A stretch of 64,000 nucleotides of DNA from a virus (IMGVR_UViG_3300028591_000008:32001-96000); one strand, 5' to 3'; positions 3,719-62,930 are shown, numbered from the stretch's first letter. Program-made: numbers and translations. The notes: a model not told the origin generated them from the letters alone.

Positions 3719-3750
3719 ATAAAAGCAGGTATTTCTACCTGCTTTTTATT
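3719..3750. terminator. Bidirectional intrinsic terminator
   Basis: AAAAGCAGGTA-TTTC-TACCTGCTTTTT hairpin between convergent genes. Confidence 0.75.
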
Positions 3751-4102
3751 TTACCATATATTGAATCCCTTCAATATCTTCCATATTTAATTCATATCCT
3801 TCTAGTTCTTCTAATGGAATCTTCATAATCTCAATATCACTTTCAATATCCATTAACTCATTAATTTTCTAATTTACTTCTTCTACATTTTCTTTTAAAA
3901 TAACTATATCCCCTTGCTTATCTTTTGTCCCATACTCCATTAGAATTTTCTAACGCAAGTCATAAATTATTTTTGCTTCTTGCTAAAGCTTTTCTTTATT
4001 TTTTAATAAGGCGTATCCAACCGAAACTTTTAATTTTAAACTTTTATCCTAACTAATTCTACTTATAGTTTCATAAAGTTCTAATATTTCACCATTTTTC
4101 AA
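3746..4102 (-). CDS. Hypothetical protein, 118 aa (TAG read-through)
   Basis: GGAGG RBS, TTG start, MKNGEILELYETISRISQDK..., ends TAA; several in-frame TAGs; absent from ORF track. Confidence 0.7.
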
Positions 4103-4104
4103 TT

Positions 4105-4830
4105 TTACTCTGCCTCCCAATCAACTATTTCTACTTTAGGAGACTATATATCACTAAAGTATTTCCCTATACCAATTGCATCGCATTCATCTTCTGTTGG
4201 CTATAAATTAAACCATTCTTTAACAAGTCGCTACATACTTCTTTTCCTATCAGGTCTTGATTTTCCCTTTACACCACAATGTGCACGCCAAGTATTTGTT
4301 GGAGCAATCTTATAGCTAATCTTTTCTTCATAGCAAGTGGCCGCGAGAATACCTTGAAGGCGCGCGAGGGTCTCAAAAGTAGTAACACCTGCGGCAGTCT
4401 AATATTGAATTCCCTCTAATCCAACAAAATCTATTTCATACTAGTCAATTAAAGAGATTAACCACTACTTTACCTATACACTTCTTTCAATATCATTTTC
4501 TCCAGAAGTTTCAAAAGTTCCATAATCAATTAGATTTTTATTATTAAAAACTGCATAACCACTTACATGTGTTGCCTAATCTAAAGCAAGAATGCGGTAT
4601 TCTCCTTTTTTCTTTTTGGTATTTTTAAATTCTTTGGTTTTTAAGCGCTCGCGCATGCAAGTTGGACAAATACGATTATCTCGAATTTTTTTCCAAGGGG
4701 CCACAACAGTGTGGCCCCTATCACATTTAAATTCTAAGTTAGAGTCGAGATTCTAATATGTTTCGCTTATCAGTGTCCATCCATCAGCTGATATACTATT
4801 TTTAATCTCGTCAATACTTATGCGGGCCAT
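4105..4830 (-). CDS. RuvC-like Holliday junction resolvase with N-terminal Zn-finger-like region (TAG read-through)
   Basis: ILALD[TAG=Q]ATHVSGYAV, VGLEGIQY, TLARLQG and EDECDAIGIG motifs of the RuvC fold; N-terminal C..GH and CPTC; start overlaps dUTPase stop. Confidence 0.8.
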
Positions 4831-5726
4831 TACATCACCCCAGTACTACCAAAGCCCGCGCCATGATCGTCTTTAAAGCCACCGAGAGAATTAACTTGCC
4901 GCCACTTTATACGAGGTACTTCAATAAGGCGAAGTTGCGCGAAGCGTTCACCCTTACCAATTGTAATTGGGCCACCATATTCTTTAACAAGTTCAAGGTG
5001 ATCAGAGGGATTGTAAATATCTACATCTTTCACATGAATATCTGTATTCTCAACAATCACGCCAATCTCTTCATGATAATCTTCATCAATAAGACCAGGA
5101 CTATTAGGAATTCGCATTTTCATGCGCGCGCTCATACCAGAACGAGGTTGAATAAGTAGAGCATATCCATGTGGAATTGCTACTTTAATACCAATAGGAA
5201 TAATTACTGTCTTCCCGCAATCAATAGTGTATTCTTCTGGTGAATAAATATCCATGGCGGCCGCGCCATTTGTAGAATACGTAGGAAGCTTTGCATTTTC
5301 TCTACAGAGTTCCACTGGAATTTCTACTATATGCGCGGGATTAATAGTGGAAGAAGCAATTGAATTTGCAGCAGCAGCAAATAGAAATCTAATAAAATCC
5401 TTTTTAGACTCACTAAGATTAGTTTCGCCAGAAGCAAAAACTTGATCAATAACTTCGTCACTAGCATTTATAATATCATTGACAGAAAGCCCGGCTTGAC
5501 CCATTAATTTTATAAGTTGCATTTGTGCTTGTGGATCATCATAAGCTTTAGCCATAGTTTCTTGAAAAATTGGACGAATTATTTCAAATTCTTCATCAGG
5601 TACACTAAGTAAGGCAGCAAAAAGATCCATACCACTAGCTTCGGGATTACTAAGAGCTTCATCAAGAATTCCTAAACTTTCAAGGCTTAGCTAATCAAAA
5701 GCTTTACTAACATCATTCTCATTCAT
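4830..5726 (-). CDS. dut: Trimeric dUTPase with long N-terminal extension
   Basis: AAMDI, PRSG, PGLIDEDYHEEIGV, RFAQL and GFGSTG motifs; start extended from 5630 to ATG 5726 through one TAG (5691-5693). Confidence 0.9.
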
Positions 5727-5937
5727 CTTCCCATACCTCACCAAAAATCTTTGTCGCGGTTACAATCCAAGCTTCGGCGATTACTTCTCCTTTTGCTTTT
5801 TTAGTTTTATATTTGTAACCATTTGCACCGAGAGTATATCCTTCTTTATTTTGATTTGCACGCAAATCGCTGAGGGCTTGAATAGCTTCTTCTTCACTAT
5901 ATGCTTTAAATTCTTCCGTAACTTTAAGTTTTCTCAT
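5719..5937 (-). CDS. Hypothetical protein, 72 aa
   Basis: ORF track; AAGGAG RBS; tightly packed in operon. Confidence 0.7.
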   Translation of the reverse strand: MRKLKVTEEFKAYSEEEAIQALSDLRANQNKEGYTLGANGYKYKTKKAKGEVIAEAWIVTATKIFGEVWEDE

Positions 5938-5950
5938 TTATTTACTCCTT

Positions 5951-6220
5951 TTACTCAACTGAATTATGTGCTTCACAGGTTATCTGAATTGGGTTAGGAA
6001 TGTCACCTGGTGTTGTGGTTATATTTGGATTTATTTCTTTATTCCCAAGATAGGTTATAGTGGGACTGCTCCACCAATTAGAATGATTGCTAGAAACACC
6101 TTTATTATAACCATCATTATAGCCCTAGTCATAAGCTTCTCTTAAGAAATTTTCAAATTCTTTCTTAGTTAGAGCAATCTTATCAGTATTTTCATTTATA
6201 TAAACTACAAAAGGTTTCAT
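5951..6220 (-). CDS. Hypothetical protein, 89 aa (TAG read-through)
   Basis: MKPFVVYINE...EAYD[Q]GYNDG...; ATG overlaps permease stop; fills operon gap. Confidence 0.65.
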
Positions 6221-7440
6221 ATTTTTTTCTCCCGTAAAATAAGATTTAAAATAACTCCTGTAACAAGTGCTAACGCCGTACCACTTAAATTAAATACTTC
6301 GCCACCAAGAACTACTCCGCTAATTCCTAATGATAATACTACAGAACAAATAATTAAATTCTTTTGATTATTAAAATCAACATTTTTCAAAAGACGAATA
6401 CCGCTTGAACTAATAAAACCATATAGCACGCAAGCAGTACCGCCGCCAATAACACAAGAAGGAATTGAAGCTATAAATGCTTGTACTGGTTCAAAGAAAC
6501 CAAGCGCCATCATCATAAGTGCTGCGACAAATGTAACTTTAGTTGAAGCGCATTTACTAAATCCGACTGCAGCCACGCCCTCACCGTAAGAACAAGCACC
6601 TAAACCACCAAATAAACTAGTGGCTAAATTAGCGGCACCCTCACCTACAAAAATTCTTCCAAGACCAGGCTCTTTATATAGATCTACTCCAATAATGCCA
6701 CCAAGCGCGGCGTGATCACTTAAACATTCACAAATAGCACTAATTGTAAAAGCTATATACATAATAATTATAGGAATAATTGATTTATCTACTTTATGCA
6801 TATTCATAAAAGCAAAAGTTGGAACATTAATTAAATGAATATTATTAAATACAGAAAAATCAACAAGTCCAAAAGGAATTGCAACTATATAACCAACTAA
6901 AGTACCGATTAAGAATGGAAACATAGCCAGCGCGCCCTTAAAGTAATGACTTGAAATTGCAATTGCTAATACTGTAATTAATGCAATTATCAATCCAATA
7001 TTACCTGTGTCGCCAATATATCCAGGAATAAAACTCATTAAGTTAATACCAATTACAACAGTTACTGAACCAATTAGAACTCTTGGCATTACTTTATATA
7101 AATTATCTACTGAAATATAATTAAAAATTAATCCAAAAATAATATATACAATACAACTAATAGCGCCACCGATGGCTACTGCTGTATATCCTCCAACCGC
7201 GAGTGCTGCAAGAACTGGAGCTACAAAAGCGCCACTATTTGAGATAAACATCGGAGATTTGCCTTTAGTTACCAGCCAATAAACAATAGTTGCCAATCCA
7301 GCTCCAAAGAAAGCGCCAGAAAGTGGGACGCCGCATACTTGTGCGATAAGAGCTGTTGCTGTAAAGCAACTAAGCATTACCTAAAGAGAAAACAATAACA
7401 ATTTTCCAATTGGTGGCTTATCATTTATATTATATATCAT
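6217..7440 (-). CDS. NCS2-family nucleobase (uracil/xanthine) permease
   Basis: Many hydrophobic segments, SNSGAF and SYGEG motifs like UraA/PyrP; N-terminus MIYNINDKPPIGKLLLFSL[Q]V restored through TAG at 7381-7383, the position of the NCS2 TM1 Gln. Confidence 0.85.
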
Positions 7441-8024
7441 TATTCATTCCTCCAAAACTTTTCATATTCTTCCATACTCATTTTTGTCTCTTTAAGAAGT
7501 TCAGTAATACCATAATTATTTAGCATCCATTCTTTAATAGCTTTAATTGCATCTTCAATATTAGATACTAACATACCATATTCTTTAATCAAACCAGTAA
7601 CATAAAGATTTTGGTAGCTGTACTGCTGTTCTCCAAGACTCGCAGCGCCGCCGTTATCTTTTGCTTCACTATGAGTAAGCGCGCATTGTCGATTATCGGT
7701 ACAAATTCCAACTATATATTTAATATCGCCACGAGCAATTTTTTCATGAAATTTACCAATTTCGGCACACGTACCTGCAGGAAGTACATCACCATCAATA
7801 CAAGCAATTAATATATCTGTATTATCAAGACGCTTATTATCCGCAGCTGCAATTTCTTTGCTACCTGCAAATTTTTTCTTTCCTTCTACTCCATTAATAT
7901 CAGTATTTTCTACTGGGCTATATAAATCAATGTTAGGAAAGGCATTTCGAATTTTCATCGCCCATTCTGTATTTCGTAGAAGATCACCATAAGTAAAAAT
8001 AGGACCTGCTAAGTATGCTTTCAT
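7440..8024 (-). CDS. Nucleoside 2-deoxyribosyltransferase-family protein
   Basis: YLAGPIF, YSPVEN, DILIACIDG and GTCAEIG motifs. Confidence 0.75.
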   Translation of the reverse strand: MKAYLAGPIFTYGDLLRNTEWAMKIRNAFPNIDLYSPVENTDINGVEGKKKFAGSKEIAAADNKRLDNTDILIACIDGDVLPAGTCAEIGKFHEKIARGDIKYIVGICTDNRQCALTHSEAKDNGGAASLGEQQYSYQNLYVTGLIKEYGMLVSNIEDAIKAIKEWMLNNYGITELLKETKMSMEEYEKFWRNE

Positions 8025-8027
8025 ATT

Positions 8028-9233
8028 TTACTCCTTTATTAATTCTTCTGTTTTTTCATAAATGGTTTCATTAGTAATTAAATCAAATATATAATATTCA
8101 TTATCTTCAACTACCAAATGAAGAATATAATTTTTAATATTTTCAAAATCTGTCTTTAAGTCTAATGATTCAATTACAGTTTCAATTAAAGTCATATCTA
8201 TTTCTTCATCATTAGCTTTTTTGTTAGATTCGTTAATAAACTCTTCAGTTACATTATATTTTACTTCAATTGCAAATTCATCAGCATTAATTTCATATGA
8301 CTCTAGATAGTTTTCTTGAATATATTCAGTTTTTTCTTCTTCAGCTTTTAGGCGTTCTTCCTCATAATGTTTTAAAATATCTTCAAAATATTCTTCTACT
8401 TGCTGAGCAAAAATATCTTCATCTGTTATTTCATACTCAGGACTCGGAACCGGGGTATCCGTGGGCTCAGGAATAGGTTCAGTAGTCACTATAGGAGTAG
8501 GCTCAATGGTAGGTTCTGGAGTTGATGTAGGTTCTACTGTGGGAATTGGGGTAGGTTCTATAGTGGGTACTGGAGTAGGCTCAATGGTGGGGATAGGAGT
8601 CGGTTCTACTGTAGGTATTGGAGTAAGAGTGGGTTCTACTGTAGGAGCAGGGGTGGGAATTGGAGTTGGAGTTGGAGTTGGATGAAGAGCAGGTATAACA
8701 GAAATTAAAGCAGCTTTGGTACTAACACTTCCAACATTATTACTATAACGACAATAGACCCACCAACCGTTTAAGCCATATACTACATTTTTTAGATGCA
8801 ATGTACTATACATTCCGTCAATAATTTCTACAGTTGGAAATATCTCTTGTGCAGCTTGATAAGCTAAATCAGTTTTACCATCTGGGCTCACAAAATGCCA
8901 TACCGCGATTGTTGCATTTTCATATTTAGCAACGAAATAACACTCTCCGCCTTCTTGTACAACCTCATCAGTGGGACTCTTCGTAATAATAGGTAGAGAA
9001 GGAGTTGGTATTACCGTTGGAGTTGGTTTTTGAGTTGGCACTGGCGTAGGTGTAGGCGTAGGTATCGCAGTTGGTTTAGGGGTTATCACAGGAAAAGGAG
9101 ATGTAGTTGGTGTTGGAGTGACTTCAATTGTTGGGGTTGGAGTCACTTCTATATTAGGTGTTTTTTTCTATCCACATCCCATAAAAGAAAAACAACAGGC
9201 GATTACCAAAAAATAAATAATTATTTTTTTCAT
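8028..9233 (-). CDS. Lipoprotein with Pro/Thr-rich repeats flanking an Ig-like domain
   Basis: Signal peptide MKKIIIYFLVIACCFSFMG-C restored through TAG at 9168-9170; PTPTP and TVEPTPIP repeats; central beta-rich domain; acidic C-terminus. Confidence 0.75.
8445..8680 (-). repeat. Coding tandem repeat (24-nt PTPIPTVE-type units)
   Basis: Repeated PTVEPTPI/PTIEPTPV units in the translation. Confidence 0.8.
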
Positions 9234-9291
9234 ATTATTACCTCTTATTATATTCAAAATTTTATAATAAAACTCTTCCATTTCTATATAT

Positions 9292-9320
9292 ATTATATCA
9301 CAAATGGAAGAGAAAATCAA
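9292..9320 (-). promoter_or_regulatory. Sigma70/SigA-like promoter
   Basis: TTGATT-N17-TATAAT with TG extension, upstream of lipoprotein-to-resolvase operon. Confidence 0.6.
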
Positions 9321-9322
9321 AT

Positions 9323-9871
9323 TTACGGTTCAAGATATTTAATTTTTTTATTTAATTCTCTTGCCCACTCAATTTCATTTTTAGTGGACTCACCGATATA
9401 TCCATTTGGATTAATAACAAAAATCATATCAGACATTTCAATTTTTGCTTTATGCATTTCGTCTAATTTTTCTTTTGTTCCTTCTTCCCAAACTTCATTA
9501 TCGCCAGAATGTCCAAACAAACCAACACTTAATACTATATATCCCTCAAGTGTTAATTTCTTTTGAACTTCTAAAAATTCATCCTTAAATTTGGTGCTGC
9601 CGCATAAAGTAACTATTGGGTACTTTTTTACTTTATAATATCTACCACAATGACAAAATCCAGCGTGGTTTTGTTCTTTAAATTCCTTACACATACAACG
9701 CGTTTCTGGAATTTTTTCAATCGCGCAACAACAATATCCATCATTATCTTTTATAGCTTCTTCAATTTGTTTGCGATGAATAAAATCAGGATTTGGTAAA
9801 ATCTCATACTCATCTTTATTACTGATTCGCATAGCTTTTATTTTCTCCACAATTTGTTCCTAAATATTCAA
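9323..9871 (-). CDS. Ferredoxin-thioredoxin reductase catalytic-subunit-like domain fused to a DUF4406/deoxyribosyltransferase-like domain
   Basis: GYCCC...CMCKEF...CHCGRYYK Cys pattern of the FTR beta chain; C-terminal TLCGSTKF...YIGESTKNEIEWA; likely TTG start at 9871 via TAG at codon 4. Confidence 0.65.
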
Positions 9872-9881
9872 AAATATCGCC

Positions 9882-10355
9882 TCAACATATATTTTTTGCA
9901 TACTGATTATTAGAAGCTAACTCTACTCCTAAAATAGTATCAAATATATGTGGAGAATTTGGCATAAACCTTCCAAATTTTACAATAATATTATCTAATT
10001 GAGATAAAAATTCTATTTTATCTTGAACTTCTTCTTCTTTATAACCAGTATAAATTATAATTGGATCTTTTGAGAATCCGCGAAAAACACAAATAAAGCT
10101 CCATAGATCATCCCAACTATCAAAAGGTTCAAGGCCACCGCAGACAATTGCATGAGTTAAAGAATTGTTTAAATATCTTTGTACTACATCTATACTTCTA
10201 ATTTCAACTTCTGGCTCATGTGCGAGCGCTGAATTTTGACATATCTCGCGCCCGCACTCTTTGTCGCATTTAAAAGTACAGTTGGGAAAGATTAGAAACA
10301 TGGATGGATTTTTATAATTACATATATCGTAGTCATTTAAGCCCTTAAGTTTCAT
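9882..10355 (-). CDS. nrdG: Anaerobic RNR activating enzyme (radical SAM)
   Basis: CTFKCDKEC...CQN, GGLEPFD and YTGY motifs; adjacent to nrdD. Confidence 0.85.
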   Translation of the reverse strand: MKLKGLNDYDICNYKNPSMFLIFPNCTFKCDKECGREICQNSALAHEPEVEIRSIDVVQRYLNNSLTHAIVCGGLEPFDSWDDLWSFICVFRGFSKDPIIIYTGYKEEEVQDKIEFLSQLDNIIVKFGRFMPNSPHIFDTILGVELASNNQYAKNIC

Positions 10356-12277
10356 GCATCTGCTCCTTTTTCATTTAAAGGCATCCATTCACGTAGTTTA
10401 AATTCTGCTTTACGCTCTTTAGAATAGGTTTTGGTTGGAGTATAAAAACCAACTATTCTTGTATACTCAGTTTCAACCGGTTCTCCACAAACTGGACATA
10501 CCTTGCCATAAAAACTGTGATAATTTTTACATTGCGCGACTTTACCATTAAAAGCAAAATATGTTACACCCTGTGCTGCAACCCAATTTAGCATTTCCCA
10601 AGCTTGCTCAAATGTTGAGAATGGAGCATCAACATTAATATGTTCAATTGACCCACCATTACAGTAAGAATCAAATGCGGCGCAGATTTTGGTACGTTCG
10701 AGAATTGTTGCTTTAATTCCAAGTGGAATCCATTGGTTCCCATAAAGAGGAAGATCTTCTACAACTTTATCGGGGTAAAGGAATTTATCCGCGGCTTGCA
10801 TTTTCGCGGCGGCCTGTTCGGCTGGGACTTGCTCGATATTAAACTTATAGTTCTTATCAAGTGAGAAATTATCAATGCAATTACGAATCACTTGGAAGAT
10901 GCGGCGGCCAAGCGAATAAGCTTCATCTATATAATAAGTGTTACCAAATTCATCAACTTTGGTATAACCAAAAGTCTTCATAGCTTCATAAATACCATTT
11001 ACACCAATTGTTGAATATAAATGTTCAAAATCTACAAGACCAGAAGAAAAGCTAGGCAGTAGACCTTTCTCAACATTTCTAGTAATTATATCACGCTGAA
11101 CGTCAAGGATCTTTAGATTAAGTTCAGTAAGATTACGAAGCCGCACTAAAAATTCCTGCTCAGTTTTACTCTGATAAGCCAGGCGCGCGATATTTAAGGT
11201 AGAAACTTTAACAGAGCCGACTTTTAGTGCAGAACCGCCAATGGAATTAAAGTATAGATCAGTTACATCCGACTTGAGACGGCAGCAATTAGAAAGACTA
11301 TTAACTGTACTATCAGTAAAGAAATTGAAGAGGTTCCATTTGCGGCTAGCTTCACATGCCCAGCGTGCGAATTCATCATCAACAAATTCATTATTTACAT
11401 ACAAAAGTGAAGCCGTAAGAACTGGGAATGTAAAGATATTTTCTTCTCTAATTTCGTTTACAACATCAATAAAGTCTTTCTGGAACTGAATAATTTCTTC
11501 TTCTTCATCAATCATTAGTTCTCCATCAGGGAATATTGAGCCGCCAAAAATAGCCTCAAAATAGGGATGATCAAATACACTCACATTGGTAAAAGCTGCT
11601 TGATCTGTACGCACCCAAGGTTGGTTAAGACGATAGATAAGTGCTTGAAGTTGTTGGTGTTTATAAGTTTCTGGATCTTTAGTATAATAGCCAGCTTTTA
11701 CATCACGACTCCAAAAATAATAAAGATAAGGAATGAGGTTGGGTAAACCGACTGCGCCACTTTGACGGCGGCTGAGCCATGCGATTCCTTCCATTAGAAT
11801 TTGGATAAAGCTATCAAGGTGCTTCGCGGGCTTGGCATTATAATTCTCAATGAAAAATAGACCGCGTTCAACAATATCTTTAATATCATAAGCAAAACAA
11901 TAATGATAAAAAGTAGAAGTATTAAAATCATGCATATAAAGTGCATAGTTCCACATAGCTTCCATAGCTTCATTTGCTGTTTTAAAACCATACTTTTTAT
12001 TTAATTCATAATAAAGCTTATTAAAAGCAAGAAGCTTTTGATGTGGTTTTGACATTTCTGATAATAGAGTCACAATATCTTTTTGTGCGATATTAGCATT
12101 AGCATCTACAGATGCATTTGCCACATTATCAGAGTCAATAAAACCTTCAATAAAATCTGTAAGGCTTAACTTTTCATCATCAAGTCCTTGGAGTTTAAGG
12201 AATTCTTCTCCATATGTCTCAGCCATTTTATTAAACTGAGTCTAAAAATTCTTCTTTGTTCTAATATTTATATTCAT
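10352..12277 (-). CDS. nrdD: Class III (anaerobic) ribonucleotide reductase, no ATP cone
   Basis: SNCCRL finger loop, TFPVLT, CPVCG and YTRIVGFY glycyl-radical motif; start extended to 12277 through one TAG (12242-12244). Confidence 0.92.
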
Positions 12278-12477
12278 TCTAACGTATTCACCCATTTAAT
12301 AGCTTCTGAGAAGCCGTAATATTTATCATCAACTTTAAGGATAGGAGCCGCCTTAAAACCAAGCTACTTCATTACTTCTATATCATCACAAGTAGTATAT
12401 TCAACAGATTTTCTATTTAATTTTGTCTCAAGAGCCCGGCATTGCGGGCAATGTGTAGTATACAATTTAATCTCCAT
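12274..12477 (-). CDS. nrdH: Glutaredoxin-like redoxin (TAG read-through)
   Basis: MEIKLYTTHCPQC...VMK[Q]LGFKAAPILKVDD; the cis-Pro motif is recovered only by read-through. Confidence 0.8.
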
Positions 12478-12667: not shown

Positions 12668-13778
12668 TAATAAGTTTTCCTCCTTGTAAAATAACATTAG
12701 GCATACTATAAAACATATCAAACACTTCATAATTATGTATACGCATATATTGAAAACTGTCTCTTATTTCTTGTAATGTTACCGAGAAGTGACTCCATGG
12801 CATTACTTCAAGGTAAGCTCTTTTTTTCCAAGCGCACCATTTATACAAAGTTTCTCTATGCGGTGGTATAAATTCGCACCGTGATCGTCCATAAAAACAG
12901 TTAAAAAGCTTCATAAGATTTAAAAGTTCTGGTGTCTTGAAGAATTCGTTGTTAATATTAAGTAAAATCTTTGTATCATGACTCCGTAAAAATAATAATT
13001 GCTTATAAAATTCTCCTAATTGATTCATCATAAAATGGTTCTCGTCGGAGCATCCATAGGTGAAATTATATACCATTTGCCGCAATCCAAGTATTGGTTT
13101 TTCACATAAGGCGACTAGTTCATCAGTAGTAAACATTCCATTATATTGTAGATAAAATACCGTTCCCATTGGTGGTAATTTTAACCACTTCATAAGTTCA
13201 TCAAAACTATATACGTTAATTGGATACTTATTCCCAATTCGATATGGGAGACCGCTCGGCCGCCTTCGACTTACATCTTCTAATAATTCAAATGCGCCTG
13301 GTATAGCTGATAAATCATAATCATGAAGAATTACAGATGGATGATATGGTTGAAGCCTTTCATAAGGGAAAGGCTCAAGTGTCTTTCCATCTAATGATAA
13401 TCTTACATGAGTTGCATTAAGAATTGTTCTAATTTCTTCTCGTCTAGGTTTGGTGGTACCATATTGCTCTTTATACTTTTTATAAATCTCGAAGTCAGGA
13501 ATAATATGTTCCATTTCAAGATTAAATGGTTTATATTGCTCAGAAAATGCGCGGCCGCCGTATTCAACATTTGGACGTAAAATTTTATTATCATAAATAC
13601 CATCATCATATTCTTTTCTAAAGAAAATACTAGTGTAACGAGCTGGCTCAAAATCTGGACTAAATACGACTATATCTCGTTTACTCTTGCGCCAAGCTGC
13701 ATATTTTGCACATTCCAAATTTGGAATAACACTGGGATAATGGAAGTAATCCCAATCATAAACTAAAATTACTGCCAT
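12636..13778 (-). CDS. Hypothetical protein, 380 aa
   Basis: Long TAG-free ORF coupled to dnaE. Confidence 0.75.
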   Translation of the reverse strand: MAVILVYDWDYFHYPSVIPNLECAKYAAWRKSKRDIVVFSPDFEPARYTSIFFRKEYDDGIYDNKILRPNVEYGGRAFSEQYKPFNLEMEHIIPDFEIYKKYKEQYGTTKPRREEIRTILNATHVRLSLDGKTLEPFPYERLQPYHPSVILHDYDLSAIPGAFELLEDVSRRRPSGLPYRIGNKYPINVYSFDELMKWLKLPPMGTVFYLQYNGMFTTDELVALCEKPILGLRQMVYNFTYGCSDENHFMMNQLGEFYKQLLFLRSHDTKILLNINNEFFKTPELLNLMKLFNCFYGRSRCEFIPPHRETLYKWCAWKKRAYLEVMPWSHFSVTLQEIRDSFQYMRIHNYEVFDMFYSMPNVILQGGKLINEWKRDSGTN

Positions 13779-16700
13779 TATCCTTCATCCGCCCTTTCTG
13801 TTTTAATTATTAATCTTTCGTTTTCAATACCAACTATTTGTTCAACTCTGTGCCAAGGAGTTGCTTTATATACTTTAGCAACAAAACTTTCTTCTTGCCG
13901 AATGCCTGTTACAATAATTTTGTTGCCACGCGTGAACATTGACTTCTCAATTACGTGTTTCTTACCATCTGGCCCCTTTACAGAAATTTGTTTATCATAT
14001 GCTTCAAAAGCACCATAAATCTTTACTGAAACTACGCCAGTTGGAGTTAATAATTGAACTGTCTTTTTTGCTTTATCTCGATCTAATACCGTGCCCGCGA
14101 TACGATGAAGTCTAAAAATGGGAACTTGTTTACCCTTAATCGGAATAACTCTTTCAACTTCAGCCTGTTCACTTAAATCAAAAAAATCTTCAATCATGTA
14201 AAGGCTTAAATCTACATTTTCTAATTCATGTTCATGCGAATAGAACGAAACAGAATCCATTTCCCATTTACTTAAATTGCCTAAGCAATATTTATTCCAT
14301 ACGTCTGCGGTTAACCGATCATTTACCGCTTTAAGTAGTTCTTCATTATGATCTTTTATATATGGTCTAATAATATCCATTTGCTTTTTATAAATATTAT
14401 CCCATACAACCTGTTTAATACAAAAACCACTTTCAGTAAAATTATTCGGTTCGGTTTTATCTATATCAAAATAAGTTTCAAGAAATTTAAAAGCTGGATT
14501 ATCAAGACCATAATAGCCTTGGTCCATTTTCATTTTCTTTATATACTTATTAAAATTATATACACGTCGCTGTAAATCATATTTATCTGGAATAAGACCA
14601 AAATCAATTAACATTTTCATGTTTTGAAGTGTAATACGCTTTTTAGTATCGCTTATCATATCTACGTATTTATGCATAAGTTCAACTCGATTTCCAAAAC
14701 TATCAAATGCACCAGATTTAATAAGATTTATCATTTGAACTTTATTGACTTTTACTTTTGAAAGAAAATCAGTTATTGAAGTATACGGACGATTTGCGAT
14801 AATTGCTTTTACGAGTTCTTCACCTACGCGTGTAATACCACTAATACCATAACGAATGATATTTAGTTCTGCGTCTGGAGAAAAAGTATAGGTTGATTTA
14901 TTAATATCTGGAGGTTCGACAACAATCCCACTCATTCTCATTTTTCCGATTGCAGTTGCAATTTTACCATAGTTTACACTTGAAGTTTTCTTTTTCTTTT
15001 TTACACCGGCTTCAGCTTCTTCATCTTCGTCATCATCATCTTCATCATCTTGCGTAAACTCTTCAATCTCATTACTATATACTTCTTCCACAACTTCAAC
15101 TTCTTCATCTTCCTGTTCTTTTTCATCGCCGCCCGCGTCCGTAATTAAACATGCGCAGTTCCAGAAGATAATTGGATAATGATATGCAAGATTCATTTCT
15201 TGAAGCGCAATCAAACTATATGCAAGAGTATGAGATTGGTTAAATCCATATCCACGACTCATTGCAATCAATACGTTCCATACATAATTCGCAAACTTTT
15301 GATTAATTCCTTTTTCTTTCGTTACTTCAAAGAACTCTTTTGTTAAAGCGTCATAATCTTTTGGGTTCTTTTTTGCGATTGATTTACGAAGTTTATCTGC
15401 CCAGGTTAGACTAAAACCACCAAGTTCTGGAAGTTGAACCAACTCCATAAACTGTTCCTGTGCAATACAAAGACCATATGACATACCAAGAACTGGTTCA
15501 AGAATCTTTCTTTCTTCTTCTCCAAGTCCATATCGCTCCATTTCTTTTTCCCATTCATCTGGATTTGCTTTGAAGCGCGCGAGCTTATCAGTCGGCATTT
15601 CTCCACCTTTTTCTTGCGCCATAAGACGAATTGTAGAGTTAAGAATCGCAAGGTCATCAACAGAAGTCGGCTTTAAAGTTGCGATACCATTAATACCAGA
15701 TTGCTTTTCCATTTGGAACAAAGACTGAATCTCATGATTCCAAACCATCTGCCACATCTCTGGATTATCGCGCTCAAGATTATATACACCAATTATATTT
15801 TCATAAGTTTCTTTTAATGTGCGCTCACGCTCAACTAAACCAGCATCACATAAAAGATCAATACAATTATGAATCTTATCCATTGCTTCAACTGATAACG
15901 CATCATACTTAATAAGACTTACATCTTCTGCGTCATGAAGCTCAAACTGTGTACAAATCGTACCATCAGGCGCGCGCATTAAAGCAGTTGATTCTGTAAA
16001 AGGTTCATCAACAAAGATAACGCCACCGGCATGAATACCAGATCCACAAATCAGACCCTCAATCTTTTGAGCTACATTCCATAACTCTGGATAGTTATTC
16101 ATTTCAATAATGAATTGTTTAATTGGCGCGAAGTCGTTTTCAGTATCACCATTGTAACACTGACTCAACGTTCTTAACATACCACGGTCTGCCGGAATCA
16201 AACTTGCAATATACTGAGCTATATCTACATCAATGCCTAGACCGCGCGCGGCTGTAAGAATTGCAGATTTAGATTTTTCTGTACGAAATGTTGCAACGTT
16301 TGCAACTCTATCTTCTCCATAATATTTACGGAATGCATTTAAAACTTGTGCACGCCGGCCGCCCTCAATATCAAAATCAACATCAAGGACTGATACACGA
16401 TCTGGATTAAGAAATCTCCATCGGAAACATTTAGTTGTCTCTCTAAGAGGATTAATCTGAGTAATATCAAGACAGTACAAAAGTATAAAACCAACACCTG
16501 AACCGCGTCCAGGTCCAACAAGACTACCAGCTTCCCAACAAATATCAATTATATTTTGAAGATTTAAATAATATGCGCTCCATCGTGCGTTATTTACATT
16601 TGATGATACCCATGTATCTTCAAGACATGCATTAATTTCATTATATGCTTCTTGGTTTTGAAGATCAGGATGACGTTTTATTCCATCTATAACAGCATCA

Positions 16701-17749
16701 ACTAAATATTTATCTGCTTTATATGGTGATTCTGAAAATGTTTTTAACATTGGAATAAAAGGATACCATATGTTTTCTTTTTGTCGTGAACTAATATGTA
16801 AACAATTTTTCCATATTAATTCTGGAATTTTGAGCGGCCGCAGTAAACTATAATCTTCAATGCTATCTCTAATCTTTAAAATATTTTGATATGCTCGTTG
16901 AAGTTCTTCTTCACTAAAATATGAAAAGTAACTTTCTAGCTCTTCTGTACTCATCATATATGTAGTTGCATAAAAATCATCAACTTCGCGGTCGCCATTC
17001 TGTGCATTAAGATACGCTTTATGAACAACCCTATCTTCTTTACGAAGATAATGGCTATCAGTTGTGATAATATACGGAATATCAAAATAAATCGAATGTT
17101 TTAAAAGCGTCTTATTAACTAAGATTTGATCTTTATTTTTTGACGGTTGCATTTCAAAATAAAAATTGCCATGCCCAAAAAGTTTATCCATCTGTTGAAT
17201 CCATATATCAATCTTTGGTAAAAGATCCGGATTTGATTGCGCGCGAAGAATCTGCGTCGGGAGCGCGCCGCCAAGGCAAGCTGTTGAACCAATTACATGA
17301 CCTGGATTTGCTCCAATAATTTCAAACAAATCATTATAATATGTTGGAACTCTACGCATACCGCGCGCCATGCAACTACGCATCCACGCGCGAGTTGAAA
17401 TTTCACGAATTTGCTGCGCGCCAATTGCATCCTTTGCAAGAAGAATAAAGTGATAATATCTATCAACTTCTTTATTATAATTCTGTGCATTTAATCCATT
17501 TCTACAAAGATAAATCTCATTACCAAGAATTACTTTTAGATCTGGATATTTTTCTTTCAATTTTTTTGCAGCCTTTTCAGCCTTAACCCATCCACTAATA
17601 CTTTCATGGTCAGTTAAGGCTACTACTTTATGTCCAAGTTCTCCTGCATAATTAAATAAATCATCTAGTTTATTTATGCAGTCACGCAAACGAATATTTG
17701 AATAATCTGAATGATTATGTAAGCTCCCTGGATAATTCAGTTTCTCCAT
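13778..17749 (-). CDS. dnaE: DNA polymerase III alpha subunit (family C)
   Basis: PHP motifs LHNHSDYS and TDHE; GPGRGSG; VLDVDFD; GIHAGG; YGFNQSH. Confidence 0.95.
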   Translation of the reverse strand: MEKLNYPGSLHNHSDYSNIRLRDCINKLDDLFNYAGELGHKVVALTDHESISGWVKAEKAAKKLKEKYPDLKVILGNEIYLCRNGLNAQNYNKEVDRYYHFILLAKDAIGAQQIREISTRAWMRSCMARGMRRVPTYYNDLFEIIGANPGHVIGSTACLGGALPTQILRAQSNPDLLPKIDIWIQQMDKLFGHGNFYFEMQPSKNKDQILVNKTLLKHSIYFDIPYIITTDSHYLRKEDRVVHKAYLNAQNGDREVDDFYATTYMMSTEELESYFSYFSEEELQRAYQNILKIRDSIEDYSLLRPLKIPELIWKNCLHISSRQKENIWYPFIPMLKTFSESPYKADKYLVDAVIDGIKRHPDLQNQEAYNEINACLEDTWVSSNVNNARWSAYYLNLQNIIDICWEAGSLVGPGRGSGVGFILLYCLDITQINPLRETTKCFRWRFLNPDRVSVLDVDFDIEGGRRAQVLNAFRKYYGEDRVANVATFRTEKSKSAILTAARGLGIDVDIAQYIASLIPADRGMLRTLSQCYNGDTENDFAPIKQFIIEMNNYPELWNVAQKIEGLICGSGIHAGGVIFVDEPFTESTALMRAPDGTICTQFELHDAEDVSLIKYDALSVEAMDKIHNCIDLLCDAGLVERERTLKETYENIIGVYNLERDNPEMWQMVWNHEIQSLFQMEKQSGINGIATLKPTSVDDLAILNSTIRLMAQEKGGEMPTDKLARFKANPDEWEKEMERYGLGEEERKILEPVLGMSYGLCIAQEQFMELVQLPELGGFSLTWADKLRKSIAKKNPKDYDALTKEFFEVTKEKGINQKFANYVWNVLIAMSRGYGFNQSHTLAYSLIALQEMNLAYHYPIIFWNCACLITDAGGDEKEQEDEEVEVVEEVYSNEIEEFTQDDEDDDDEDEEAEAGVKKKKKTSSVNYGKIATAIGKMRMSGIVVEPPDINKSTYTFSPDAELNIIRYGISGITRVGEELVKAIIANRPYTSITDFLSKVKVNKVQMINLIKSGAFDSFGNRVELMHKYVDMISDTKKRITLQNMKMLIDFGLIPDKYDLQRRVYNFNKYIKKMKMDQGYYGLDNPAFKFLETYFDIDKTEPNNFTESGFCIKQVVWDNIYKKQMDIIRPYIKDHNEELLKAVNDRLTADVWNKYCLGNLSKWEMDSVSFYSHEHELENVDLSLYMIEDFFDLSEQAEVERVIPIKGKQVPIFRLHRIAGTVLDRDKAKKTVQLLTPTGVVSVKIYGAFEAYDKQISVKGPDGKKHVIEKSMFTRGNKIIVTGIRQEESFVAKVYKATPWHRVEQIVGIENERLIIKTERADEG

Positions 17750-22787: not shown

Positions 22788-23771
22788 TTAACCCTGCGTC
22801 CTTACCATTTCTTCCATATCTATTACTACAAGCTGGAGTAAGTCTACCTGGTCTTCTGTAAACTCACTGAGCTTCATTCGACGTCCCATTGTCATTTCAA
22901 TTTTCTTTAGAATTGCACTTGCTACTTCTGGTCGAGCATTTTCACCTTCACCGACAAGTTGTTTCCAAAGAGTTTGTGCCTTTTCTCTAACTTCCCCAAA
23001 ATCGAGTTTTGTTTCGCTTTTGGTTTTAGTAGTATCAACAACAGTAGCTCCGTCCTTCTTTTCAGCCATTTCAATAGCGTCTGCAATTGCATTTACCAGC
23101 TCGTCATAACCAAATGGAATCTTATCGGGCATATATTTAAAACGACTACCTGCGAACAGAGTGGGAGTTTCACGAGTATAAAGCCAACGCTTACGTTCCC
23201 CATTTACCCATTCATTACCAATATATCCAATAATATCCACGATTCCGTTACAAACTTCACTCGCGCGCTTTGGAAGGTCTGGAGAAATGATTTCAACATC
23301 ACTACCATCAGCTGTCTTTTCAACACGAGAAGCACTATGTGCAATTAGTACAACACCATATCCAAGCTAAGTGATTCTACGGATAGAGGATTCAAATTCC
23401 TTTTTACAGGCTGTATAGCCTGCACCCCATGGAACATCACTAATTTTTTGAACACCATTTTGCTGGCAAATAAATTTTTCACACATTTCCCAGCAAATAG
23501 AAACTGTATCAATAATTACGGTTTTAAAACGCTCTTTAGAACGATTATCTTCGAGGTCACGTAGAGCCATTTTAAAATCGCTCCATTTATTTATATCAAA
23601 AGGATAAGCATCACCGATAGCATTATATCCTTTCTCAAAAGCCAAGAGAACTGCATCGGGGAAGGAGCAAGCCGCGGTAGTTTTACCGCTTTTTGGCTTG
23701 CCATAAAGTAGAACATACTTCCCTTTGAGATCTCTTGAAATTACATTCTTTTCAACTTCCCAAAGATGCAT
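22788..23771 (-). CDS. AAA_24/Sak4-like NTP-binding recombination protein (TAG read-through)
   Basis: Track ORFs 23367..23771 and 22788..23240 are in frame, joined at TAG 23367-23369 (IRRIT[Q]LGYGVVLIAH); GKPKSGKTT and IIDT motifs. Confidence 0.82.
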
Positions 23772-30093: not shown

Positions 30094-30238
30094 ATATTTT
30101 CTCCTTTCATTATATATAAATATTATAACATAAAAATATCGAGAAGTCAAATTTACTTCTCGATACCTTATTATAATTATATAAATATTCTTTACGATGG
30201 TTTTATTATATCATAATTTTAAATAAAAATCAAATTTA

Positions 30239-46567: not shown

Positions 46568-46951
46568 ATGCCTATATATGAAAATTTAGATTTTAATTTA
46601 CTTGATTAGATTAATACGCTTGCCGCCAGATGGCTTGTATGGAATTCAAAAGAACAAAAAAAGCCGTTAGGAATAAAAAAGTTTACAAGAAAAAATTCAA
46701 CTCATATGTGGTTGTTATATATAATGAACTCTGTTAGTATCGTTACGGGTTATCCAGATTTTTATTTGGATTGTTCTTGGATTGATTATCTGTATATAAG
46801 ATTTATTAGAAAAATGCGGCATGTAAGAAAAGTAAATAAAAGTATAGATATTTTTTTAATTGAACCGGAAATTTTTACTAAAGAAGTTTGTGAAAAGTTT
46901 GATTATGATAAAAGTATAGTTGGTTATATTTATGAACAATATTGGAGGTAA
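46568..46951 (+). CDS. Hypothetical protein (TAG read-through)
   Basis: Start extended via TAG at 46607; promoter TTGATT-N17-TATAAT at 46499-46527. Confidence 0.6.
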
Positions 46952-46953
46952 TA

Positions 46954-47913
46954 ATGGTTGAAATAGGAATTCCTGTTTACAGAGCCAAAGCAACTTTACC
47001 GGACACTTTGGATTCTTTAGTTGTATAGACTTATAAAAGATTTATTGTGACACTTTCTATAGATGGCGATGGAGAAGATTATAGTGATATAGTTGATACA
47101 TATAGGGCGCGCGGGCTTAAAATTAGAGTTATAACATCGGCAGTAAATCATGGGCCAGGTATGGCACGGCAGCTTATACTTAATGCAACAATATGCGATT
47201 ATATAATGTTTGTTGACGCTGACGATTTACTTATGCCGCGTGCGGTTGAAGTTTTATATACACAAGCAAAAGCCGCAAATTATGATATACTTCAAGGAAG
47301 TTTTATTAAAGAATCAAAAACTTCAAATGATATGATGATGGCCTCTACAGACAACGTAATCACATGGTTTCATGGAAAGATCTATAAGGTAGATTATTTA
47401 AATAAGAAACATATTACTTTTCTTCCAGAGTTACGTGTTGATGAAGATGCATATTTTAATGCAATTGCTTGGAACTCTACAGAAAATAAAGGTGTAACTG
47501 GAGAAGTAGTATATCTTTGGCGTGATAATAAGTCTTCTGTTACTCGTGCGCTTCCACTAAAAGACTATTTCATTAAGACACATAATGATTATATCTATGG
47601 TCAAGTACAAGCATTAAAGAAGTTATTTGAAATAAATGAGTCTGTAAGTCAGTTACTTATTACAATGACTTTAATAAATATATATTATTTCTATATGAAG
47701 GCTCGTTTTTATAAATGTGATGAAACAGAAATGGATGAAATTATTTCTACTTTGAAAGATGAAAAGTGGATGCAGCTATGGCTTCAACAGGGTGAGAACT
47801 GGATGGATGTTATGGCTAATATAAAACCAGGGCAAATTTATGATGATGAATATGTAGTTTTTTATGAAGAAACATTCAATTTATGGGCCGCGCGCCTTCT
47901 AAGGAGAAACTAA
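46954..47913 (+). CDS. Family 2 glycosyltransferase
   Basis: IGIPVY...SLVV[TAG=Q]TY, NHGPGMAR, FVDADD and DED motifs. Confidence 0.85.
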
Positions 47914-50650: not shown

Positions 50651-51661
50651 ATGGAATTATAGTATATTTATTTAATGGGTTTATCTGCATTAGCCATTTT
50701 TGTTATAGGATTAATTTTTATTGTTTATGGAATAAAAACCTCTCGTCTTAGTGCGGAATAGGCTGCAGAGAAACACAAGAAATATGTAGAGGAATTAACT
50801 AGAGAATAGGATGAAGAATATTAGAAATCTATTTAGTATTGTCAAGCTATAAAGAAAGATATATAGAAGGCCGAAGCTGATCGTAAAGTTGCTATGGAGA
50901 GGGCGGCCGAGGCATAGGTAGCGACAGATAAACTGCTCCAATCCGAACAGGGGCGACTGGCCGCAGAGCTTCAACGTAGGAAAGAATTGGAAGAAGTTAA
51001 ATTTGAATAGGAAAAAGAAAAAAGATAGCAATGGATTGATCTTTATTATGCTAAATTAAATGAACAAGAAGAACATGCTTATAAACAAAAGAGAGAAGAA
51101 TTATAGGCTGAAATTATATTATTATAGTGCGAGTTAAACGATTTTAAAGCTCGCCAAGACTCAATAAATGAAGCTATTCTTCGTCAAAAGGAACTTAAAG
51201 AAAAAGAAGCTTTTTACTCTATTCAAATCTCAGACAATGATAAAGAAGATATAAAAGTTTTATAGTCGATGGATCTAAAGCTTCATAATCGTGATGTAAT
51301 CCCCAAGCTTATTTGGGAATTATATATACGGCGGCCGGCGCAAGAAATGATTAAGCGAATAACAGGTGGCCGCAAAGTTAGCGGTATTTATAAAATCACA
51401 AATAAAGAAACTGGAGAGTCTTATATAGGGAAAACTACTGATTTTTCTACACGTTGGCAAAATCATTGCAAAACGGCAATTGGTCTTGAGGGTGCGGCCC
51501 GTGCGACTTTACATAATCGTTTAGCACAAGATGGATTATGGAATTATACATTTGAAATACTAGAAGAAGTAGACAAAGAAAATTTGTCTTCAAGAGAAGC
51601 ATTTTATATAGATTTATATGGAACAAAACAACAGCTTAATATGAAAGAAGGGAGTAAATAA
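50651..51661 (+). CDS. Membrane-anchored coiled-coil GIY-YIG nuclease (TAG read-through)
   Basis: N-terminal TM helix, about 170-aa charged coiled coil with about 12 TAGs, C-terminal GIYKITN...YIGKT. Confidence 0.78.
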
Positions 51662-55012: not shown

Positions 55013-55636
55013 ATGAATGATACCGAATTTGTAATTGATCTACCAGAAGAATTATTTGATACTAAACTACCAAATAGTTATAGTTTAAAATATTATTAGG
55101 ATTTAAGTAATCGAACTATTTGGATTAATGATGAAATTACTGGAGATCTTACACATGAGCTTGTGCATTATATTATGAAATGGAATAGAGAAGATAAAGA
55201 TATTCCAGAAATGAACCGAGTTCCAATAAAACTACTTTTTGATAGCCCAGGCGGTGATTTAGATGCTCAAGCTGCAATTTGTAGTATTATTGAGCTTTCA
55301 AAAACTCCTGTAATTGGTATAGCTATTGGTATGGTTGCTAGTGCAGCATCTTATATTTATCTTTCTTGCCATGTACGCTTAGCATTGAAGTCTAGTTATT
55401 TTATTCTTCATAAAGGAAGTGCGGCCCTTAGCGGAGATTTTGATAATATAATGAGTTCTATTGACGATTATAAGAAAGAAATTGATAAATTAATTAATTT
55501 CATAATTGAAAGAAGTAAATATACTCGTGCCGAAGTTGAAGAACAAATTAAGAAAGACTGGTACGTGCGTGCGCCCGAGGCATTGCAAAAAGGTTTAGTT
55601 GACGAAATTATAACTGATATTAATGCTTTGCTTTAA
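55013..55636 (+). CDS. clpP: ClpP-like protease
   Basis: DSPGG, VASAAS (Ser), HKG (His), DWY (Asp); start extended via TAG at 55097. Confidence 0.85.
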
Positions 55637-61792: not shown

Positions 61793-61903
61793 AAGGCACA
61801 CACAGCAATTTTCTTTTAAAAGAATATTAGCATAATGGTAATGCATTTGTTTTTGGTACAAACTATACGGTTCGAGTCCGTAATAACTCTTTTATTGTGC
61901 CTT
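61793..61903 (+). ncRNA. Wrapped tRNA-Gln(TTG)-like element without CCA
   Basis: AAGGCACA/TGTGCCTT outer stem + ACAGCAA enclosing D arm, TT-TTG-GT anticodon arm and GGTTCGAGTCC T arm. Confidence 0.6.
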
Positions 61904-62323: not shown

Positions 62324-62417
62324 AAGATACATACAGCAAATCGTAAATAGTGTTTTGGTTACACAACTTGTCTGTAAAACAGGTCGAAGCGGTTCAAATC
62401 CGTATTTTATGTATCTT
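62324..62417 (+). ncRNA. Wrapped tRNA-Tyr(GTA)-like element without CCA
   Basis: AAGATACAT/ATGTATCTT outer stem + ACAGCAA enclosing D arm, CT-GTA-AA anticodon arm and GGTTCAAATCC T arm. Confidence 0.6.
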
Positions 62418-62500: not shown

Positions 62501-62930
62501 AACGAAAGCAACCGGCCGGCTATAGGTTGTGAGTAGATCCCTGCACGCCCAACATTAGAACGGCGTACCACGCAGGGTTTTTGTTATAGACGGCAGCTTG
62601 ACTGTGCGTCGTGGCATTGAAGCAAATGACGGAATCAGCGTCCGTACATTTATGGAGCCATGAATGAGGGTTAGACAGTTTCCACAGGCTGATGTAGGGG
62701 AAACCTGAAAGAAAATGTCATAGGAAGTAGGGCTGTGAAAGGCAGCTAGTGCGAGCCTCCCGCACGAACGAAAATTAGATAGGTTCGGCCACCCTGAAAT
62801 GAAAGACCCGACTCCATATGGGGCAGTCCTCGGAGGATAAGCATCCGGATTAAAAATTTAGTTTATCATTTATTAATGAAATTTGCTAAGCGCGTGTGCC
62901 CTACTGGTGAGACCGGTCCCTCCACTAACA
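62501..62930 (+). ncRNA. Candidate structured ncRNA(s)
   Basis: GC-rich, ORF-free; TATGGAG/CTCCATA and AGGGT/ACCCT helices close a domain of about 170 nt at 62651-62818. Confidence 0.4.

Follow-up and report, generated by a model that had tools for sequence, protein, structure and literature searches.

Stop-codon recoding in code-15 phages has been proposed to act as a block on late or lytic genes (Borges et al., bioRxiv 10.1101/2021.08.26.457843; Peters et al., PMC9523058), and one code-15 phage, phAss-1 (OQ749652), has been described with probable Clostridia hosts (PMC10607447). Borges et al. (bioRxiv 10.1101/2021.08.26.457843) detected a suppressor tRNA in only 40% of the genomes that recode TAG, and ascribed single in-frame stops in the N-terminal extensions of integrases to wrong start calls. 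On the position of TAG within genes, no statement was found in Borges et al., in Peters et al., in the phAss-1 paper (PMC10607447) or in the theta-ribozyme paper. Here we analyze this position in a 64,000-nucleotide (nt) stretch of viral DNA (IMGVR_UViG_3300028591_000008:32001-96000; hereafter the window), which corresponds to bases 32001-96000 of a virus record that is complete at 124,253 bp and carries direct terminal repeats. Coordinates are window positions unless marked "genome", and the public sequencing runs containing the genome of this rumen phage are from sheep, cattle and goat gut. An earlier note on the window had pointed out that several long genes carry exactly one in-frame TAG (amber) codon very near the start, and had interpreted this as part of a three-tier translational timer. 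We found that the start-proximal placement of TAG is statistically real and is confined to genes poor in TAG.

TAG behaves as a sense codon in this phage. When only TAA and TGA are taken as stops, the open reading frame (ORF) of the tape measure protein, 2510 amino acids (aa) long, holds 76 TAGs and a 1565-aa ORF holds 31, and among the 149 called genes 109 close with TAA, 40 with TGA and none with TAG. Where relatives carry another codon in alignment with a TAG of the window genome, this codon specifies glutamine (Gln) in 207 of 628 cases, i.e., 33% against a background of 3.3%, a 10-fold enrichment for which codon 20 of the permease gene, codon 25 of the glycosyltransferase gene GT2 and codon 12 of nrdD serve as examples. 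Judging from these alignments, the early TAGs are true coding codons translated as Gln. The ribosome-binding sites are strong and of the GGAGG type, which points to a low-GC Gram-positive host, and we infer that the host uses the standard code.

The number of TAGs differs widely among genes: none in 56 genes, one in 12, two in 6, three in 8 and at least four in 24. In agreement with the earlier note, the replisome genes dnaE, recJ, primase, dnaB, gyrA, gyrB, ligase and uvrD are free of TAG in the window genome; recJ, primase and dnaB contain TAGs in some relatives. The view that tail and lysis genes are rich in TAG holds for the tape measure gene and the endolysin gene (7 TAGs), and the terminase gene has 13, but it needs restriction because several virion structural genes, including the probable capsid gene, have none. 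When TAG is compared with CAG, TAG-dense genes use it for 83% of the two codons together, and TAG-free genes, in which CAG accounts for 45% of Gln codons, for 0%; in TAG-poor genes its share is 79% over the first 30 codons and 39% in the gene bodies. CAG has been nearly displaced by TAG wherever TAG is tolerated.

Within genes, the placement of TAG departs clearly from chance. In the single-TAG genes of at least 100 codons (n = 12), the TAG is the first Gln-type codon in 8 cases against 2.2 expected (exact P = 1.2e-4). Genes with one to three TAGs have TAG at 19 of the 33 Gln-type codons within the first 30 codons and at 29 of 219 later ones (odds ratio (OR) 8.9, p = 9e-8), whereas no 5' bias is found in genes with at least four TAGs (OR 1.3, p = 0.36), and of the 40 early Gln codons in TAG-free genes, 0 are TAG. 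A permutation of TAG positions within genes, which the earlier note had proposed as a check, likewise gave a non-random placement (p = 5e-5). For recoded relatives, we counted each alignment column only once so that inherited codons were not counted again, and TAG was present in some member of TAG-poor families at 13 of 36 early Gln columns and 25 of 266 later ones (OR 5.4, p = 8e-5). The bias is present also in phAss-1, a distant relative (p = 0.003). As a control, we examined three standard-code relatives, in which most TAGs stand only a few codons from the end of the readthrough ORFs, where real stops would be expected. Expressed as a share of Gln-type codons, TAG reaches 56% at the 5' ends and 13% in the bodies of TAG-poor genes, and 43-50% throughout TAG-dense genes. 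Because the share at the 5' ends is close to that in TAG-dense genes, these ends look like tolerant sites that accept TAG as late genes do, with no special excess there. A stricter rule, in which TAG is always the first Gln codon, holds in the window genome but was rejected because it fails in relatives, where TAG stands at the second or third Gln site of nrdD and at the second to fourth of the "FTR" gene described below.

We also checked whether the genes truly start before these codons. Every one of the eight early TAGs listed in the earlier note was reproduced at the same codon and in frame, and the starts of all eight genes lie upstream of the TAGs, not downstream, as that note had allowed. 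The Pfam match begins before the TAG in the permease (residue 13), in GT2 (residue 4) and in the ClpP-like protease (residue 27), and the N-termini of nrdD, the permease, "FTR", dut, gene 46568 and GT2 are conserved with relatives. Re-initiation at a downstream ATG was examined as a possible purpose of the TAG and rejected: relatives do not conserve the ATG that follows the TAG of nrdD, and one of them has its TAG past this ATG.

Five of the eight genes lie in one leftward cluster on the minus strand. The nrdD gene for anaerobic ribonucleotide reductase (10352..12277; 641 aa; Pfam NRDD) has its single TAG at codon 12 (12242-12244), and its ATG overlaps the nrdH stop as ATGA in the window genome. 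The NrdD N-terminus is conserved from the same ATG in 27 related contigs; in relatives, the column of this TAG holds CAA in 9, CAG in 8 and TAG in 3, and the single TAG of nrdD is found at codon 12, 14, 30 or 65 depending on the lineage, with none in others. In G001, a relative with a complete genome, a group I intron (Rfam, 90 bits; L049:2650-2963) lies in the region of nrdD, and the nrdD match is about 940 nt longer than in the window. The Cys-rich "FTR" gene (9323..9871; 182 aa) has its single TAG at codon 4 (9860-9862). The "FTR fusion" identity given in the earlier note has no Pfam or PHROG support, and the sole match is a PHROG of unknown function. Its start column holds TTG, ATG or GTG in 11 of 11 relatives, and the TAG lies at codon 4, 5, 6 or 12 in four lineages and at codon 67 in one, with none in the rest.

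In the same cluster, a predicted lipoprotein (8028..9233; 401 aa) has its single TAG at codon 22 (9168-9170), two residues past the lipobox Cys. A signal peptide and an FMGC lipobox precede this TAG, a GAGG Shine-Dalgarno sequence precedes the ATG, and no orthologues were found when relatives were searched. The NCS2 (xanthine/uracil family) permease (6217..7440; 407 aa; Pfam Xan_ur_permease at residues 13-377) has its single TAG at codon 20 (7381-7383), inside the domain and in the first membrane segment, and a GGAGG Shine-Dalgarno sequence stands before its start. This TAG is retained in 7 of 12 orthologues, the other 5 having CAG or CAA; the permease of one relative carries four TAGs, all within codons 6-61, its later Gln sites being CAA or CAG. 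The dut gene (4830..5726; 298 aa) encodes a dUTPase (Pfam dUTPase at residues 144-228, with a PHROG dUTPase match) that has an N-terminal extension of about 130 aa, and its single TAG is at codon 12 (5691-5693). Its start ATG has a GAGG Shine-Dalgarno sequence, and 13 relatives can be aligned with its N-terminus (M-NE...), a TAG being present in none of them (0/13).

The other three genes lie on the plus strand. Gene 46568 (46568..46951; 127 aa, function unassigned) has its single TAG at codon 14 (46607-46609), which is retained in the relative G002 and replaced by GCA in G001, with a conserved N-terminus. GT2, a family 2 glycosyltransferase (46954..47913; 319 aa; Pfam Glycos_transf_2), has its TAG at codon 25 (47026-47028), retained in both G001 and G002 and aligned with CAA in two more distant homologues. 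The ClpP-like protease (55013..55636; 207 aa; Pfam CLP_protease at residues 27-201) has its TAG at codon 29 (55097-55099); G002 has CAA there and a TAG at codon 86 instead, and G001 has no TAG in this gene. Two exceptions to the 5' rule that the earlier note had named were borne out. The AAA_24 ATPase gene (22788..23771, minus strand; Pfam AAA_24) has its single TAG at codon 135 (23367-23369), aligned with CAA or CAG in relatives, and the NrdH/glutaredoxin-like gene (12274..12477, minus strand; weak Pfam Thioredoxin_3 and Glutaredoxin matches) has its single TAG at codon 38 of 67 (12364-12366), which is unique to the window genome among 30 orthologues.

The leftward genes appear to form one transcription unit. 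Near-consensus promoters of the host type stand about 60 nt upstream of TAG-free replication genes, at 30150, 27810, 25138, 22770 and 17810, the last of them (17810-17782) preceding dnaE, the TAG-free gene for DNA polymerase III alpha (13778..17749, minus strand; supported by Pfam). Leftward of 17810 we found only weaker promoter-like matches, the best of which (9320-9292, with a TG extension) lies near the lipoprotein gene. The unit has a TAG-free head consisting of dnaE, a 380-aa gene and a 66-aa gene. The following genes nrdH, nrdD, "FTR", lipoprotein, permease, an 89-aa gene and dut carry one TAG each, and nrdG, the deoxyribosyltransferase gene and a 72-aa gene among them carry none. The 89-aa gene (5951..6220, minus strand; function unassigned) has its single TAG at codon 32 (6125-6127), retained in 4 of 9 relatives and replaced by GCA, GGT or AGC in the others. 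The two TAG-free genes with Pfam support here encode an NrdG-like radical-SAM activase (9882..10355, minus strand; Fer4_12) and a nucleoside 2-deoxyribosyltransferase (7440..8024, minus strand; PF05014). The last two genes of the unit (3746..4830, minus strand) are for a RuvC-like resolvase with 9 TAGs and a 118-aa protein with 4 TAGs, after which a strong two-way terminator-like site with an 11-pair stem is found at 3721-3746; weaker terminator candidates lie inside dnaE (about 16000-16500) and dut (about 5260). From this arrangement we infer that the unit is co-transcribed from the dnaE promoter. The mRNA of the cluster may therefore be present before read-through, because the cluster ends a unit headed by a host-type promoter and has no comparably strong terminator before it. 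Consensus promoters of the host type at genome 8579 and 82576 head TAG-dense genes, namely those for a sigma-like factor (11 TAGs) and a GIY-YIG nuclease (12 TAGs; 50651-51661, plus strand), the latter having a perfect TTGACA-17-TATAAT promoter; therefore a block of early-type transcripts at the level of translation is plausible.

How TAG is read was examined in the tRNA genes. No uninterrupted tRNA(CUA) gene was found in the phage genome by ARAGORN, Rfam or a pattern scan, which is not unusual because suppressors are detectable in only 40% of TAG-recoded genomes, as mentioned above. A suppressor tRNA was likewise not found in G001, which is complete, or in G002, by ARAGORN, Rfam and a stem-loop scan; an extra Rfam tRNA in G001 was considered and rejected, its anticodon being UGU (Thr). 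When introns were allowed, ARAGORN assigned a tRNA at genome 117825-117974 with a 75-nt insert in the anticodon. The insert is itself tRNA-like, having an acceptor-like stem, D and T arms, an 8-nt anticodon loop, a discriminator G and CCA, and ARAGORN at a relaxed threshold calls this nested unit with exactly these bounds, from the stem through CCA. Its exact excision leaves a 7-nt loop, CUCUAAA, with the anticodon CUA. On other phage contigs, several of which come from the same metagenome series as the relatives of this phage, 21 tRNA genes contain the 18-nt anticodon stem-loop so formed without an interruption, and the corresponding version with CUG occurs in 0. The gene at genome 117825-117974 is the only candidate for an amber suppressor of this phage.

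A second interrupted gene was found at genome 107854-108001, which ARAGORN calls tRNA-Trp(CCA) with a 71-nt intron; the assigned "CCA" instead forms the 3' terminus of a tRNA-like unit nested in the gene (Rfam tRNA, 31 bits). Excision of this unit gives a 77-nt tRNA with the loop CUUAUAA and the anticodon UAU (Ile), which aligns without gaps to the uninterrupted, syntenic tRNA-Ile(UAU) of G001 with 53 of 77 positions identical and the same loop. No ribozyme or intron family was detected in the insert region by Rfam even at a lax threshold. A pattern search of IMG/VR gave no other occurrence of the same interrupted stem, and an exact search gave none of its 3' half. Among contigs of one RNA run and three DNA runs covering genome 107001-119000, no join across either insert was listed, a result that is uninformative on splicing.

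Several other features of the tRNA arrays are worth recording. A tRNA-Thr(UGU)-like gene at genome 109809-110357 has a 471-nt insert in the anticodon loop that is almost wholly a 144-aa PD-(D/E)XK endonuclease ORF (Pfam PDDEXK_5, E = 9e-31); because the ORF fills the insert, too little room is left for a group I ribozyme core, and Rfam gave no ribozyme there. A TAG-free RNA ligase gene (genome 102695-103942; Pfam RNA_ligase, PHA02142 OB-fold) and a calcineurin-type metallophosphoesterase gene (genome 105158-105721) adjoin the arrays, and their products could work as a pair in healing and sealing RNA ends. The interrupted suppressor candidate is followed directly by a GIY-YIG/HTH homing-endonuclease-like gene with 5 TAGs (genome 118001-118645; L097:11001-11645). 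In contigs of one DNA run and of one RNA-library run, the last base of this tRNA is connected to L097 11662 with 14 other letters between, and therefore strains without the GIY-YIG/HTH gene exist. In the window, a drum RNA (Rfam RF02958, 73 bits; 62612-62723, plus strand) lies inside a tRNA array just after tRNA-Val, and two tRNA-like genes on the plus strand, at 61821-61891 (UUG) and 62342-62412 (GUA), are low-scoring, AT-rich and without CCA; the "Tyr" (GUA) one does not have the long variable arm of bacterial tRNA-Tyr. The tRNA array of G001 has a match to a CPEB3/HDV-like ribozyme (L046:991-1078). Another relative, G003, makes no in-frame use of TAG and has a long-arm tRNA with the anticodon UCA, which ARAGORN calls "SeC" (L067, genome 76722-76818); this hints at UGA read-through in that phage.

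Because the TAGs are coding and lie 3-28 residues past the true start in what is taken as a standard-code host, the genes carrying them, among them genes of nucleotide supply, ClpP, GT2, the permease and the lipoprotein, must depend on amber read-through for completion. As for why the TAGs lie where they do, we incline, though only slightly, to the view that they occupy tolerated sites of low cost, that the cost of a TAG depends on its position, and that gating arises as a consequence. Host ribosomes reading TAG as a stop would release peptides of only 3-28 residues, the cheapest form of abort, and a TAG deep in a gene would waste more synthesis and leave truncated, possibly harmful products as long as read-through is absent or incomplete. 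The permease, the lipoprotein and other membrane proteins should bear the highest cost of this kind; several carriers are indeed exported or located in the membrane, and their TAG precedes or falls within the first hydrophobic segment. At the first Gln sites, TAG would then drift to the frequency that is usual for it, gene bodies would be purged of it, and the gated proteins would be delayed or reduced relative to the products of TAG-free genes on the same early-type transcripts. A model of this kind explains the purge from gene bodies, the freedom of the first Gln sites, and the permease of the relative with four TAGs near its start. The absence of TAG from virion structural genes can be read in the same way, abundant proteins perhaps avoiding TAG since its reading is costly.

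Several points weigh against this low-cost explanation. The bias is weak in G001 alone (p = 0.12) and absent in G002 alone (p = 0.83). The loss in yield of full-length protein should be the same at any TAG position, and therefore waste or toxicity would have to outweigh yield. A fully blocking early TAG would shield later ones, which should accumulate; they do not, and the model thus requires leaky read-through. Haplotypes with at least two early TAGs number 1 against 3.1 expected, fewer though not significantly so (P = 0.09), and this deficit leans to selection for one gate. Both dut and ClpP carry a single early TAG also in phAss-1, a relative only about 30% identical, and this again leans to a selected gate.

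It is therefore necessary to consider a gate that has itself been selected, in which one early TAG is kept as a lock on middle genes until suppression is established and early, middle and late tiers follow in time; we regard this as possible, with a chance clearly below even. In its favor, seven of nine consecutive genes in the run from nrdH to dut have exactly one TAG and none has two, this cluster lies downstream of TAG-free dnaE on an apparently single unit with a host promoter, the single TAG of nrdD occupies different Gln sites by lineage and is never doubled, phAss-1 has one early TAG in each of the dut and ClpP orthologues, and consensus host-type promoters on TAG-dense genes make a translational block plausible. 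Conservation of the 5' TAGs in relatives, which the earlier note had proposed to examine, did not exceed neutral turnover, however. Retention, defined as the share of TAG among Gln-type codons in orthologues of G001 and G002, is 0.63 for early TAGs and 0.50-0.60 for late genes. The TAG at dut codon 12 is unique to the window genome; this one and those at ClpP codon 29 and "FTR" codon 4 are not common to close relatives; in several recoded relatives, TAG is missing from nrdD, the permease, "FTR" or dut. Conversely, at sites within the first 30 codons of these genes where the window has CAA or CAG, relatives hold TAG in 5 of 11 Gln-type cases. Because retention equals that of late genes, these codons come and go, and the under-dispersion is not significant, positive selection for a gate is not shown. 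For the three-tier timer of the earlier note, the TAG-free replication genes, the TAG-rich structural and lysis genes and the requirement of early TAGs for read-through stand, but the tiers are blurred, since TAG counts form a continuum, virion structural genes can be TAG-free and recJ, primase and dnaB of relatives can carry TAGs. A timer is plausible, but tolerated low-cost sites agree with the data no less well.

A more elaborate version, in which the early TAGs are selected locks on middle genes (nucleotide supply, ClpP, GT2 and the permease) and RNA processing, not transcription, sets the time of their release, appears doubtful to us. In this version, the sole amber suppressor of the phage would be the split tRNA, and it would gain activity only once the nested unit has been excised and the TAG-free RNA ligase has sealed the halves. 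Still less likely is an effect of composition or of a ramp, in which AT-rich or slowly read 5' ends favor TAG as a rare AT-rich codon irrespective of the timing of suppression. The first 30 codons of genes with one to three TAGs do have a lower GC content (0.310 vs 0.367 for the rest), and in TAG-free genes CAA/(CAA+CAG) is 0.68 at 5' ends against 0.55, but CAA would serve AT-richness equally well and the effect is class-specific, being absent at the early Gln codons of TAG-free genes and in TAG-dense genes; the AT-rich 5' end that the earlier note had offered as an alternative is thus too weak. An annotation artefact, in which the starts lie downstream and the TAGs are ordinary stops in upstream non-coding sequence, is hardly tenable and on the sequence evidence is already refuted for all eight genes, because, despite in-frame ATGs downstream of some TAGs (permease codon 22, nrdD codon 18, dut codon 33) and the downstream starts in the GenBank entries of phAss-1 ClpP and dut, Pfam domains span the TAG in three genes, N-termini before the TAG are conserved at the protein level with Gln codons in the TAG column, Shine-Dalgarno sequences stand before the upstream starts and not before the downstream ATGs, and the signal peptide of the lipoprotein lies upstream of its TAG.

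Stop-codon recoding in phages can be viewed as a translation clock, and a position bias limited to TAG-poor genes is a sign at the sequence level that read-through is absent or incomplete during their translation. The bias singles out a set of genes, including nrdD, dut, ClpP, the NCS2 permease and GT2, on which the idea of a clock can be focused. It also has a practical side for curation: gene callers and annotators routinely trim such N-termini, as in the ClpP and dut entries of phAss-1, and signal peptides and first membrane helices are lost in this way. The interrupted suppressor tRNA, if functional, would represent a new architecture of tRNA genes and a candidate delay element, and TAG in G001 must be read by a route other than a phage-encoded suppressor tRNA.

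Bacterial genes have a 5' codon ramp and AT-rich 5' ends. The present placement resembles such a ramp in that a poorly read codon is concentrated in about the first 30 codons, and differs from it in that a single class of genes shows the excess and in that the host has the codon as a stop. With regard to the side observation on tRNA genes, an archaeal tRNA-Trp intron holds a box C/D RNA and a cyanobacterial tRNA-fMet group I intron encodes I-Ssp6803I. Like these introns, the inserts found here bring a structured RNA or the gene of an endonuclease into the anticodon loop of a tRNA gene; they differ in that those of 71 and 75 nt do not reach the length that a group I intron needs, match no Rfam intron or ribozyme, and are themselves tRNA-like with a discriminator and CCA.

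The phage phAss-1 is only a distant relative, its core proteins being 30-38% identical (34-38% for TerL, the 349-aa probable capsid protein, dnaE and gyrA), and its TAG-poor genes show the same excess, with TAG at 12 of 37 early and 29 of 254 later Gln sites (p = 0.002). Single TAGs lie past verified starts at codon 8 of dut, 11 of ClpP, 22 of ThyX and 39 of nrdG, and the ClpP codon-11 TAG is retained in 9 close relatives taken from IMG/VR. Its three tRNA-Sup(CUA) genes are of the ordinary kind, and two lie immediately upstream of nrdD, whereas the phage analyzed here has no uninterrupted one. Like the code-15 phages described by Borges et al. and by Peters et al., the phage analyzed here reads TAG as Gln in a host that presumably uses the standard code, its replication genes are free of TAG, and structural and lysis genes are rich in it; genes that carry TAG should have to await read-through before they are translated. 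Those studies treat the density of TAG per gene or per block, whereas here its position within genes has been quantified and the early TAGs have been shown to be coding. The placement is thus a new, quantified variant of a known principle of recoding, and the observation itself is real and well above chance.

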